Origin: Eledone cirrhosa
Lineage: Eukaryota
NCBI GenBank assembly: GCA_964016885.1
Contig: OZ024741.1
Span: forward strand, 408,642,001 to 408,706,000
Length of the DNA stretch: 64,000 nucleotides
Direction: 5' to 3'
Below are positions 28,732 to 58,120 of the stretch, in pieces. The position numbers and the translations under genes are program-made. Position 1 is the first letter of the stretch; every line of letters begins with the position of its first letter. The notes beneath the pieces were generated by a model, which saw only the letters and a list, made by a program, of their open reading frames with translations, searched no databases and was not told the origin of the DNA.

Positions 28732-31645
28732 AAGATGAGAAACTGAAGGTCGTTAATCCTTTGGTAAATATTGAGTGAAAGGTCAACTGTTGGGAGAGGA
28801 GACCTATTAACAAGGTATCACATACTGAGGTAGACAGACACACATATACACACACACACAGAGTCACACACACTACACACATGTGTGTGTGTGTATAGAC
28901 ACAACCCTCATAAAAGGAATGTGTATTTATACATGAAGATTTATCTGGGTTTTATTTTTTAACCATTTCACCAATAGAGAGTTGATTTCTAGTAGACGAA
29001 ACTACTGTCTAGCTGACTATATATATCTAGCTGACTATATATATCTAGCTGACTATATATATCTAGGTGACTCTATATATCTAGCTGACTATATATATCT
29101 AGCTGACTATATATATCTAGCTGACTATATATATCTAGCTGACTCTATATATCTAGGTGACTCTATATATCTAGCTGACTATATATATCTAGCTGACTAT
29201 ATATATCTAGCTGACTATATATATCTAGCTGACTATATATATCTAGCTGACTATATATATCTAGCTGACTATATATATCTAGCTGACTATATATATCTAG
29301 CTGACTATATATATCTAGCTGACTCTATATATCTAGGTGACTATATATATCTAGCTGACTATATATATCTAGCTGACTATATATATCTAGGTGACTCTAT
29401 ATATCTAGGTGACTCTATATATCTAGGTGACTATATATATCTAGGTGACTATATATATCTAGCTGACTATATATATCTAGGTGACTCTATATATCTAGCT
29501 GACTATATATATCTAGCTGACTATATATATCTAGCTGACTATATATATCTAGCTGACTATATATATCTAGCTGACTATATATATCTAGCTGACTATATAT
29601 ATCTAGGTGACTATATATATCTAGCTGACTATATATATCTAGCTGACTATATATATCTAGCTGACTATATATATCTAGCTGACTATATATATCTAGCTGA
29701 CTATATATATCTAGCTGACTATATATATCTAGCTGACTATATATATCTAGCTGACTATATATATCTAGCTGACTATATATATCTAGCTGACTATATATAT
29801 CTAGCTGACTATATATATCTAGCTGACTATATATATCTAGCTGACTATATATATCTAGCTGACTATATATATCTAGGTGACTCTATATATCTAGCTGACT
29901 ATATATATCTAGCTGACTATATATATCTAGCTGACTATATATATCTAGCTGACTGTATATATCTAGCTGACTATATATATCTAGCTGACTATATATATCT
30001 AGCTGACTATATATATCTAGGTGACTCTATATATCTAGCTGACTATATATATCTAGCTGACTATATATATCTAGGTGACTATATATATCTAGCTGACTAT
30101 ATATATCTAGGTGTCTATATATATCTAGCTGACTATATATATCTAGCTGACTATATATATCTAGGTGACTATATATATCTAGCTGACTATATATATCTAG
30201 CTGACTATATATATCTAGGTGACTCTATATATCTAGCTGACTATATATATCTAGCTGACTATATATATCTAGCTGACTATATATATCTAGCTGACTATAT
30301 ATATCTAGGTGACTATATATATCTAGCTGACTATATATATCTAGGTGACTATATATATCTAGGTGACTCTATATATCTAGCTGACTATATATATCTAGCT
30401 GACTATATATATCTAGCTGACTATATATATCTAGCTGACTATATATATCTAGCTGACTATATATATCTAGCTGACTATATATATCTAGCTGACTATATAT
30501 ATCTAGGTGACTCTATATATCTAGCTGACTATATATATCTAGGTGACTATATATATCTAGGTGACTATATATATCTAGCTGACTATATATATCTAGCTGA
30601 CTATATATATCTAGGTGACTATATATATCTAGCTGACTATATATATCTAGCTGACTATATATATCTAGGTGACTATATATATCTAGGTGACTATATATAT
30701 CTAGCTGACTATATATATCTAGCTGACTATATATATCTAGGTGACTATATATATCTAGCTGACTATATATATCTAGCTGACTCTATATATCTAGCTGACT
30801 CTATATATCTAGGTGACTATATATATCTAGCTGACTATATATATCTAGGTGACTATATATATCTAGCTGACTATATATATCTAGGTGACTATATATATCT
30901 AGCTGACTATATATATCTAGCTGACTATATATATCTAGCTGACTATATATATCTAGCTGACTATATATATCTAGGTGACTATATATATCTAGCTGACTAT
31001 ATATATCTAGCTGACTATATATATCTAGCTGACTATATATATCTAGGTGACTATATATATCTAGCTGACTATATATATCTAGGTGACTATATATATCTAG
31101 CTGACTATATATATCTAGGTGACTATATATATCTAGCTGACTATATATATCTAGGTGACTCTATATATCTAGCTGACTATATATATCTAGCTGACTCTAT
31201 ATATCTAGCTGACTCTATATATCTAGCTGACTATATATATCTAGCTGACTCTATATATATCTAGGTGACTCTATATATCTAGCTGACTATATATATCTAG
31301 CTGACTCTATATATCTAGCTGACTATATATATCTAGCTGACTATATATATCTAGCTGACTATATATATCTAGCTGACTATATATATCTAGCTGACTATAT
31401 ATATCTAGCTGACTATATATATCTAGCTGACTATATATACCTAGGTGACTCTATATATCTAGCTGACTATATATATCTAGGTGACTATATATATCTAGGT
31501 GACTCTATATATCTAGGTGACTCTATATATCTAGGTGACTCTATATATCTAGCTGACTCTATATATCTAGCTGACTATATATATCTAGCTGACTCTATAT
31601 ATATCTAGGTGACTATATATATCTAGCTGACTATATATATCTAGC

Positions 31646-33375
31646 TGACTCTCGAGCCACTACTGCGGAAGTTGGAGTTGTTGCAGGGCATCCCTTTGGA
31701 ACCGGGATTGCGGAAAGCGGTGTCGGCCTACGCCGATGACGTGACAGTAATGGTGTCGACAGCCTTCGAAATCGAGGCGGTCGGCACCTTACTGGAGGAG
31801 TACGAAAAGTTCACAGGGGCTAAGCTGAACCGGGACAAGTCGATCGGTTTGCAACTCGGCACGTGGAGGGGCAGACCGATGCCCTCCGATGGCGTCGTCG
31901 GACGCTGGACGGAGGGCCCGGTGAAGTTGCTCGGGGTCTGGTTCGGACCGGACCTCCAGGTGGAGAAAAACTGGGCGGAGGTTACGAACAGGGTGTTTGC
32001 ACTGACCCAGAAGTGGGCCAGTTGCAAACTATCCCTGAAAGGTCGGGCGGAGGTGGCGAACACCTACATAGCGTCCGTCATCTACTACCGCCTGACCGTA
32101 GTGCCCTGCCCAAGGGAAACCCTCACCAAGATGGAGCGCGCGCTCTTCCAATTCCTTTGGAAGAGGCGGGCTCCTATGGTGAGGAGATCCATCTGCTGTC
32201 AACACCCTTCGAAAGGAGGGCTGGGGATGCCGTGGCTAATGATGCGTAAACACGCATTAAGGCTACGGCACCTCTACGTATTCCTCACCGGACAACCGGT
32301 GTGGGCCTCGTTTGTGAGACGAACCTTTCCCAGACTCGTCTCACTCACCGAGCTGCAATCCTGGGTCAAGCAAAGACCGAGAAAACTGGGCGCCTGGCAC
32401 ACTGAGTGTGCCCAGGCGCTCACCGCCCTCTGGCAGGCGGATCCGGTTATCAGTGGAGACTCCACCGCAACATTCTATAGAGGGCTGGTACGCAGCAGGT
32501 GCGACGACGCCCTCGGAGAAGCCCTAGACATGGAGGAGGACGAACTGGCCAGCCTGTTCGGTAGGACATTCAGCCCGGGACCTATGGACAACTTCCAGAA
32601 GTCCCTGGCCTGGCAGTGCTACCGAGGGGCTTTACCCGTTCGAGAAAGGCTCTACAGACACGGGCGCCCGGGTAGGGACCCCGCCAAAAAGATCTGTCCC
32701 AGATGCGTGTGCGACGAGGAAACCGTTGCACACGCATTGGTACACTGCTCGGGCGTAGCCGATCTGTGGGGCTATGTCGAACAACTGCTGTCAAGGGTGG
32801 GACCGATCCGGTTGACCACCGAGTCTATTGTAATGATCAAGCCGCCTCCCCCCTTCAAAGATGAAGCAGAGGCGGTGTTTCTGTGCGTAATAGCCATGGC
32901 AAAAGAGGTTGTATGGTGGACGCGTCTGAAAGGACTGAGGTCGGGCGCCTTTCTCTCTGGCCAACAACTGGTCCGTTTCTTCCGATATCATTTCGGAAGA
33001 AGGATCAGGATGGAGAGAGAGGTGCTGCACCCCAGTCGTTTTTATGAAAGGTGGGTGAAAGTGGCGAGAATGGCCCGTGTGAATAAGCCTTCTCTTTACA
33101 TAAGCCTGTAGGTGGAAAAGAGGAAGGAACGAGGGAGCACCCCCTCTCTGTGCTCCTGAGGAAAAGGGTTGCACACTTTTTTCGGGGGTGTGTGCGACCC
33201 CCCAAGGCGCCTCCTCTCTATTGAGGATTTTGTTAAAAATTTTATTTTTTGTTATATCTTATTTTATTTTTATATTTTGTTATTGCCTCCTCCTTATTGA
33301 GGACGCCTTTTTGTGTAAACTCCCCCCTTTGTACTTGTCCCACTTTTGATGCCCTAGTGGCAAATAAAAGAAACT
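31646..33375 (+). mobile_element. Tx1-like non-LTR retrotransposon copy 1 (5'-truncated within RT)
   Basis: Matches the 3' 1.7 kb of the other copies; 7-bp microhomology TGACTCT at the 5' junction. Confidence 0.95.
31672..33111 (+). pseudogene. Truncated ORF2 (RT from YADD onward plus C-terminal zinc finger)
   Basis: AYADD, LSLKGR, KGGLG, CPRC..E...H....C. Confidence 0.9.
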
Positions 33376-33877
33376 TATATATATCTAGCTGACTATATAT
33401 ATCTAGCTGACTATATATATCTAGCTGACTCTATATATCTAGGTGACTATATATATCTAGCTGACTATATATATCTAGCTGACTATATATATCTAGGTGA
33501 CTATATATATCTAGCTGACTCTATATATCTAGGTGACTCTATATATCTAGCTGACTATATATATCTAGCTGACTATATATATCTAGCTGACTATATATAT
33601 CTAGCTGACTATATATATCTAGGTGACTATATATATCTAGCTGACTATATATATCTAGGTGACTCTATATATCTAGCTGACTATATATATCTAGCTGACT
33701 ATATATATCTAGGTGACTATATATATCTAGCTGACTATATATATCTAGGTGACTATATATATCTAGCTGACTATATATATCTAGCTGACTATATATATCT
33801 AGGTGAGTATATATATCTAAGTGACTATATATATCTAGCTGACTATATATATCTAGCTGACTATATATATCTAGCTG

Positions 33878-56894: not shown

Positions 56895-58091
56895 TTGGTC
56901 TTTTATCTTCCTCACCTATAGTCTGATGTAGAGTGAAGGCCCATTCACACGGGCCATTCTCGCCACTTTCACCCATCTTTCATAGAAACGGCTGGGGTGC
57001 AGCACCTCTCTCTCCATCCTGATCCTTCTTCCGAAATGATATCGGAAGAAACGGACCAGTTGTTGGCCAGAGAGAAAGGTGCCCGACCTCAGTCCTTTCA
57101 GACGCGTCCACCATACAACCTCTTTCGCCATGGCTATTACGCACAGAAACACCGCCTCTGCTTCATCTTTGAAGGGGGGAGGCGGCTTGATCATTACAAT
57201 CGACTCGGTGGTCAACCGGATCGGTCCCACCCTTGACAGCAGTTGTTCGACATAGCCCCACAGATCGGCTACGCCCGAGCAGTGTACTAATGCGTGTGCA
57301 ACGGTTTCCTCGTCGCACACGCATCTGGGACAGATCTTTTTGGCGGGGTCCCTACCCGGGCGCCCGGCTCTACAGACACGGGCGCCCGGGTAGGGACCCC
57401 GCCAAAAAGATCTGTCCCAGATGCGTGTGCGACGAGGAAACCGTTGCACACGCATTAGTACACTGCTCGGGCGTAGCCGATCTGTGGGGCTATGTCGAAC
57501 AACTGCTGTCAAGGGTGGGACCGATCCGGTTGACCACCGAGTCGATTGTAATGATCAAGCCGCCTCCCCCCTTCAAAGATGAAGCAGAGGCGGTGTTTCT
57601 GTGCGTAATAGCCATGGCGAAAGAGGTTGTATGGTGGACGCGTCTGAAAGGACTGAGGTCGGGCACCTTTCTCTCTGGCCAACAACTGGTCCGTTTCTTC
57701 CGATATCATTTCGGAAGAAGGATCAGGATGGAGAGAGAGGTGCTGCACCCCAGCCGTTTCTATGAAAGATGGGTGAAAGTGGCGAGAATGGCCCGTGTGA
57801 ATGGGCCTTCACTCTACATCAGACTATAGGTGAGGAAGATAAAAGACCAAGGGAGCACCCCTTCTCTGTGCACCTGAGGAGAAGGGTTGCACACTTTTTT
57901 CGGGGGTGTGTGCGACCCCCCAAGGCGCCTCCTCTCTATTGAGGATTTTGTTAAAAATTTTATTTTTTGTTATATCTTATTTTATTTTTATATTTTGTTA
58001 TTGCCTTCTCCTTATTGAGGACGCCTTTTTGTGTAAACTCCCCCCTTTGTACTTGTCCCACTTTTGATGCCCTAGTGGCAAATAAAAGAAA
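56895..58091 (+). mobile_element. Tx1-like copy 5, heavily truncated, with a fold-back inverted duplication
   Basis: 56895-57366 is the reverse complement of 57379-57850; the forward part runs to the normal 3' end. Confidence 0.93.
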
Positions 58092-58120
58092 TATATATAT
58101 ATCTAGGTGACTATATATAT

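Follow-up and report, generated by a model that had tools for sequence, protein, structure and literature searches.

A young Tx1-type LINE with five copies in an 18-bp satellite array that probably mimics its TA/TATC microsatellite target

The window analysed here is a stretch of 64,000 nt of contig OZ024741.1 (assembly GCA_964016885.1, positions 408,642,001 to 408,706,000). Between positions 29008 and 58120 it contains an array of an 18-bp tandem repeat, delimited with Tandem Repeats Finder and built of the unit TATATATATCTAGCTGAC and variants thereof, which is interrupted by five copies (E1 to E5) of one family of long interspersed nuclear elements (LINEs), all on the + strand and with five different 5′ ends. 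We consider it likely that these copies represent a young Tx1-type LINE of a family whose members end in TA/TATC microsatellites, and that the array was hit as a mimic of (TA)n(TATC)n rather than as a sequence on which the element is specialised. This reading rests on a (TATC)3 motif at the 5′ junction of E4, on the flanks of other copies in contigs of public sequencing runs, on the arithmetic of sequencing depth, and on the occurrence in the same array of two endonucleases that are 88% alike. The array and its insertions are arranged as follows:

29008–31650, + strand: array segment 1, 147 units, with no element 3′ end upstream
31651–33375, + strand: E1, 5′-truncated, comprising the last 488 codons of open reading frame 2 (ORF2) and the 3′ untranslated region (UTR)
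33376–33879, + strand: array segment 2, 28 units
33880–37851, + strand: E2, beginning in the end of ORF1, with ORF2 open from an ATG at 34152 to a stop at 37589
37852–40958, + strand: array segment 3, 173 units
40961–46758, + strand: E3, apparently full-length, with ORF1 from an ATG at 41178 and ORF2 from an ATG at 43057 to 46494
46759–49183, + strand: array segment 4, 135 units
49184–49197, + strand: 14 extra bases at the 5′ end of E4, forming (TATC)3 at 49183–49194, the sole (TATC)3 of the window
49198–54927, + strand: E4, apparently full-length, with ORF1 from an ATG at 49409 and ORF2 from an ATG at 51226 to 54663
54928–56895, + strand: array segment 5, 108 units
56896–58091, inverted arm plus forward part: E5, whole copy, at the right edge of the array
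56896–57366, − strand: inverted arm of E5, 471 bp, matching the reverse complement of 57379–57849 with 0 differences
57367–58091, + strand: forward part of E5, end of ORF2 and 3′ UTR, the first 12 nt (57367–57378) being the loop
58092–58120, + strand: final 1.5 units of the array, running into a 49-bp satellite

In total the array measures 10,676 bp (about 593 units), split into six segments, and it directly adjoins the array of the 49-bp satellite. The coordinates of E1 to E5 and a self-BLAST of the window bear out the first-pass annotation, which had described five co-oriented insertions with different 5′ ends inside the array; in the same self-BLAST no further piece of the family was detected elsewhere in the 64,000-nt window.

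E3 and E4 have a common 5′ start. Counted from the ATG, ORF2 spans 1,145 codons, and E2, E3 and E4 each carry it as an open frame. The encoded protein contains an apurinic/apyrimidinic-type endonuclease (APE), a reverse transcriptase (RT) and a weak zinc-binding match, of which the Pfam profiles Exo_endo_phos and RVT_1 score above the cut-off and zf-RVT below it. Residues N18, E47, Y119, D149, N151, D210 and H235 align with human L1 ORF2p, and the motif YADD is present. Upstream of ORF2, both ORF1s (E3 and E4) encode a CCHC knuckle of the form CX2CX4HX4C, with a Pfam zf-CCHC match in the E3 ORF1 only (E-value 0.0026, below the curated cut-off). ORF2 scores 319 bits against Xenopus Tx1L, to which it is 29% identical over 930 columns, compared with 168 bits against human L1 and 55–70 bits against R2. 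In an RT tree with long-branch outgroups, for which 36 of 38 rows were kept (two LINE fragments of the window fell below the length cut, and a labelled L1 was not among the rows), the element falls in an 18-row group (100/100) whose sister, joined at 96/91, comprises 12 rows with Tx1L as well as fish and coral proteins. The domains, the Tx1L scores and the tree support a young, target-preferring Tx1-type LINE, which has two ORFs and intact APE and RT motifs. The element behaves like a Tx1; strict membership of the Tx1 clade, within the L1 group, is likely. The nearest named protein, at 63%, is from Argonauta hians, and the host is likely an octopod.

As had been noted before, all five copies run at their 3′ side directly into TATATATAT(AT)CTAG; none has poly(A) there. 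The 3′ ends of E1, E3 and E4 carry two extra bases (CT), which track the type of 3′ UTR, and that of E5 carries an extra TA. The 5′ junctions fall at various phases within the unit (E1 +1, E2 0, E3 +9, E4 +15, E5 +3), with microhomologies of 5, 2 and 1 nt in E1, E2 and E5, respectively, and with extra bases in E3 (AC, 2 nt) and E4 (the 14 nt listed above). The site GAC^TATATATAT proposed in the first-pass annotation is not established by these junctions, given the differing 5′ phases and the extra TA of E5. The junctions leave the exact nick site unfixed, because the TA run could stem from the element's RNA and target-site duplications would be hidden modulo 18. Such duplications, which fit by phases modulo 18 only and are not claimed, would measure 15–21 bp in E1, E2, E4 and E5 and either 9–10 or 27–28 bp in E3. 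The insertions were likely independent events, as had been supposed, but three events rather than five are the minimum needed, because E1 may descend from a copy like E4, and E5 from one like E2.

The placement of the copies is by itself little informative for a generic TA target, since 1,004 of the 1,432 TATATATA sites of the window fall in the 18-bp array and the probability that five of five copies lie in it is 0.17. Their absence from the (TA)n tracts of the window, to which the earlier description had drawn attention together with their absence from the other satellites, is confirmed by the self-BLAST but is not significant (P about 0.17). For a palindromic TA target, co-orientation would have a probability of 0.06 with five events and of 0.25 with the minimum of three. 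The array is, however, strongly asymmetric: TATATCTA occurs 566 times on its + strand but 0 times on its − strand, and 15 of the 18 positions of the unit match an idealised (TA)4(TCTA)2TC, on one strand only. This one-strand likeness to a TA/TATC microsatellite accounts for the co-orientation of the copies, and if the target is TA/TATC read in one direction, the placement and the orientation are both expected (P 0.90). In the adjoining 49-bp array ATAGATAG is found 0 times, versus 57 times for ATAGACAG, and the absence of the former variant fits the lack of insertions in that array.

Flanks of copies outside the window were taken from assembled contigs of public sequencing runs, which are short and are not genomic copies. 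Part of the element is carried by 20 runs of 16 studies, with no RNA run among those listed; six runs contain at least half of its words, and four of these six were analysed. The contigs were gathered at 85% likeness, which pools subfamilies, with a filter that drops some records. For the stretch 54884–54965, where contigs of runs X1, X4 and X5 have loose ends, 11 of 19 rows and 24 of 193 pieces are listed, and the counts that follow refer to these.

Past the element, the listed loose ends, in contigs of the organism to which the array belongs, comprise 7 rows with 14 contigs. Thirteen of these contigs (6 rows) go on at 54925–54939 as CTATC-, ATATAT-, CTCTCT- or TATCTATC-type repeats, that is as (TA)n, (TATC)n or (TA)n(TC)n, and none continues into ordinary sequence; the remaining contig (1 row) contains array sequence at its far edge, not shown touching the element. 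The other four listed rows lie before the stretch and represent other upstream sequence. The proportion of 13 in 14 lies above the 20% of flanks that serves as a criterion for a target in PMC4494074. Of the 24 listed pieces, 22 end no later than 54939, the final position that the unit and a TA/TATC tract have in common, and the other two carry 7 mismatches. A clean crossing from the element into satellite-specific bases, the first of which is 54940, is thus seen in 0 of the 24 pieces, and the 18-mer stays below the same 20% of 3′ flanks. One X4 contig shows a (TATC)n/(TA)n tract ahead of a 5′-truncated end at 54534, in the same strand sense. Together with the (TATC)3 of E4, these flanks, which are ordinary microsatellites as far as the contigs show, speak against the specialisation on the minisatellite that the first-pass annotation had proposed.

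In X4 the depth is zero from 54941, and in X1 the contigs ending at 54941–54957, the positions at which contigs spanning a junction should stop, add only about 22 depth units, compared with 41,524 at 54932–54934. The array plateau of X1, at about 9,000, falls by 5,172 exactly at the end of the pure array 31-mer and therefore requires no link to the element. That 31-mer has a depth of 5,172 for 265 copies in the window, while the 3′ end of the element has a per-word depth of about 8,300 or more; depth is not copy number, but rough arithmetic suggests that X1 contains some hundreds of element 3′ ends versus about one array's worth of satellite. X5, from a second organism, covers the element 3′ end with no exact 18-mer behind it, where contigs show presence and not absence, and X6 has no cover at the element 3′ end. 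The depth of X4 rises toward the 3′ end; the kind of this run is not on record, and nothing on expression is drawn from it.

The copies in the window are not clonal. The endonucleases of E3 and E4 are identical in 210 of 238 amino acids, so that 12% of their residues differ, and their ORF1 regions differ in 21–36% of bases per 300-column block, whereas the RT halves differ by less than 1.5%. E2 is E4-like except for its last 400 bases, which are E5-like, and E1 and E4 differ in 8 of 1,725 bases, E2 and E5 in 5 of 727. From these comparisons the copies between 33880 and 54927 read as recombinant mosaics of two ORF1/endonuclease types, two 3′-end types and one RT. Three intact and nearly identical ORF2s had been described; all three are indeed open, while the near-identity is limited to the RT half.

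A different reading, in line with the first-pass annotation, would be that the copies in the window belong to a subfamily whose endonuclease has become specific to the 18-mer, with TA/TATC repeats serving as the target of its sister subfamilies. All five copies do lie in the array on the same strand and in the same 3′ register, and the runs searched at 85% likeness contain variants that are absent from the window copies. Nevertheless, both endonuclease variants and both 3′-end types reach the array, the 5′ junction of E4 contains (TATC)3, and none of the 24 listed pieces passes cleanly into satellite-specific bases; the X5 flank points weakly in the same direction. In addition, the array seems locally born, and the arithmetic for X1, with about one locus' worth, suggests in a rough way that it is single-locus. 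A dedicated endonuclease is thus very improbable. As to the origin of the array, a 10-mer at 28988–28997, located 20 bases upstream of the first unit, matches the non-TA half of the unit at 8 of 10 positions and is a possible seed. An origin of the array as a tail made by the element was considered and rejected: segment 1 has no preceding element, and the contig flanks are other repeats.

LINEs nick their target and use it to prime reverse transcription, and their truncated copies show microhomology at the 5′ end (PMC10760644; PMC4245944). By analogy, the APE domain of the present element, acting on the array as a TA/TATC mimic, would nick the bottom strand within the TA run or close to it and thereby prime reverse transcription, with an endonuclease that presumably favours TA/TATC-rich DNA. 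Poly(A) cleavage normally takes place 10–30 bases past AATAAA. Because the AATAAA of this family (54915–54920 in E4) ends 5–7 nt before the end of the element, the RNA would run a few bases into the microsatellite flank of its own donor. Pairing of the resulting UA/UAUC tail with the nicked target may then determine the orientation, and no poly(A) would be left at the junction. Finally, the 5′ end would be joined by microhomology, in the case of E5 after the new complementary DNA (cDNA) had folded back on itself.

The same scheme leads to an alternative in which general TA/TATC targeting is combined with local homing: the RNAs of copies in the array would end in the 18-mer and pair best with that same array, which would make it self-feeding. 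The position of AATAAA near the end and the lack of poly(A) at five of five junctions agree with it, as do the strict co-orientation and the crowding of five copies in 10.7 kb, and pairing between RNA and target has been proposed for SART1Bm and R1Bm (PMC7265360). However, the copies are mosaics of several lineages and not one clone, and the (TATC)3 of E4 would be expected from a donor that lay within a TATC tract, or from slippage. Local homing is therefore unlikely. There is likewise a small chance that target choice is in part inherited via RNA, with a donor-flank tail that guides pairing, so that a newborn minisatellite becomes a self-feeding hotspot while the endonuclease remains unchanged.

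Alternatively, little real targeting might be involved, and the pattern would reflect landing in AT-rich DNA, survival in gene-free satellite, and some array duplication and microhomology deletion. The closeness of E1 to E4 and of E5 to E2 would agree with duplication, the 5′ microhomologies equally fit end-joining deletion, and the window is rich in satellites. Against this, 17 kb of three other large satellites contain zero copies, the array segments beside the copies are unlike one another in length and in variant mix, and 13 of the 14 listed loose-end contigs are microsatellite and none ordinary sequence, which already suggests a TA/TATC motif in one register in more than 20% of 3′ flanks. 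We regard this explanation as highly doubtful.

Several points weigh against a TA/TATC family for which the array is a mimic. By design, a contig that enters the array makes no loose end at the junction, so that this side of the comparison rests on depth steps and piece ends; contig ends, moreover, also mark branches in the assembly, and the flanks come from short, filtered contigs with 11 of 19 rows listed. At 54788 about 83% of the depth in X1 represents a variant found in none of the five window copies, so that the lineage of the window may be a minority among the pooled subfamilies, and neither X1 nor X4 shows the junctions of the window itself. Some flanks consist of pure (TA)n (2 rows, 4 contigs among those listed), and a purely palindromic target would not yield strict co-orientation. 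A number of five insertions within 10.7 kb may be higher than mimicry by itself would bring about and may mark a hotspot, and the RNA-tail step is one that we infer.

Targets described for Tx1 families include transposons, small nuclear RNA (snRNA) genes and satellites as well as microsatellites, namely (TC)n for Kibi, (TTC)n for Koshi and (TTCC)n/(TTTC)n for crocodilian families (PMC4494074). The present element resembles these as a Tx1-type APE-RT LINE with a preference for microsatellites, and is set apart from them by its target, TA/TATC, in a likely octopod host; one of six listed junction rows is (TC)n, following a TA run, and none is (TTC)n. Satellite-targeting families are also in print, labelled 'Sat' in the legend of Fig. 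3 of PMC4494074, and they share with the present copies, as does Xenopus Tx1L in Tx1D, the insertion in a repeated host sequence. In our case the satellite looks like a bystander mimic; the families labelled in that figure and its supplements may include a closer case. The YURE elements of sea squirts insert in U2_sat, a satellite derived from U2 (PMC4640811), and are thus alike in that a target-preferring non-long-terminal-repeat element enters a satellite that resembles its usual target. They differ in their restriction-like endonuclease, their U2 target and their sea squirt hosts.

SART1 and TRAS1 of Bombyx belong to the R1 clade. They share with the present copies an oriented insertion in a tandem repeat, and pairing between RNA and target has been proposed for them as well, but their target is the telomeric (TTAGG)n and their junctions carry poly(A) (PMC7265360), features of which the element junctions show none (0 of 5). 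The analogy with SART/TRAS drawn in the first-pass annotation therefore holds loosely, for the oriented insertion and not for lineage, telomeric repeat or poly(A). Nothing points to a role like that of a telomere or centromere. An annotation of Octopus vulgaris lists 13 recently active L1-Tx1 families (Table 1), in passages that are silent on targets (PMC13282606). In the literature searched, with subscription papers and Repbase outside the search, no TA/TATC-targeting Tx1 element was found. TA/TATC would thus be added to the known microsatellite targets of Tx1 elements; it is not a new principle, as microsatellite-targeting Tx1 families are already known. The case would illustrate that such a family can look satellite-specific in a single window when a satellite mimics its target on one strand, and the two natural endonuclease variants, together with a clean, oriented mimic site, would suit a comparison of the contributions of endonuclease and RNA tail.

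E5 is a perfect 471-bp inverted duplication and not a plain truncation, with two private variants common to both arms. Its best reading is fold-back priming of the new cDNA. Inverted duplications with small hairpins have been described at L1 ends (10.1101/2024.12.14.628481), and the small hairpin and 1-nt homology of E5 resemble the self-annealing model; in the L1 cases described, genomic DNA is duplicated, whereas E5 duplicates sequence of the element itself. Twin priming, in the form described for plain L1 inversions (PMC10760644), leads to an inversion and not to a 471-bp duplication. A fold-back artefact of the reads was considered as well and is unlikely, as the arm connects back to the forward array without a shift in phase. 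The hairpin (56896–57849, with its 12-nt loop) adjoins a GC-rich palindrome; if transcribed, it would, speculatively, give rise to long double-stranded RNA against the family. The fold of the 3′ UTR is not notable (z −1.55).

In the ORF1 of E3 the frame changes once, close to a run of C at about 42570, and that of E4 also contains one such change, its C run at 51050 being one base shorter than in E2; these changes may represent mutations or assembly errors. Exactly 27 bases past the shared 5′ start, both E3 (40988–41055) and E4 (49225–49291) have a GTAAGT, followed 67–68 bases further by a T-rich ...TTTTGTAG, and both signals are kept though the 5′ UTRs differ by about 20%. The stretch is likely a small 5′ UTR intron that was retained in the inserted copies. 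Another donor-like GTAAGT, at 43029–43034, overlaps the stop of ORF1 (a sequence signal only), and the ORF2 stops at 46494, 37589 and 54663 all consist of TAG followed by G.

In metagenome assemblies, a large sister group of ORF2s of about 1,150 amino acids (P0006–P0085) was observed at about 40% identity, in clusters of up to 732 members. Metagenome contigs gave 0 matches to the exact 24-base pattern of the 3′ end, and the flanks of related loci in such contigs (80 of 529 retained) have no common tandem repeat. With best-segment identities of 24–34%, except for L035 (43%), these loci are too distant to inform on the target; L035 has (AT)n about 770 bases past its match, with no visible tie to the element end.

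Four other tandem arrays are found in the window, at 1–8596, 23016–28731, 58121–61059 and 62914–64000, with units of 40, 14-based, 49 and 311 bp, respectively; the copies of the 311-bp repeat are 100% identical to one another. A Penelope-like element at 10092–14199 contains an open RT and GIY-YIG frame (11035–12966) and is framed by inverted repeats of about 1 kb (95%), with (TA)n on both sides. Two LINE fragments (17160–18851 and 19638–21806), which we take to be RTE-like, encode a related endonuclease-RT and are 69% identical in DNA sequence, and a third RT fragment lies on the − strand at 61678–62589. Direct duplications are present at 14745–15112 and 16412–16779 (368 bp, 100%) and at 8951–9129 and 9566–9744 (179 bp, 99%).

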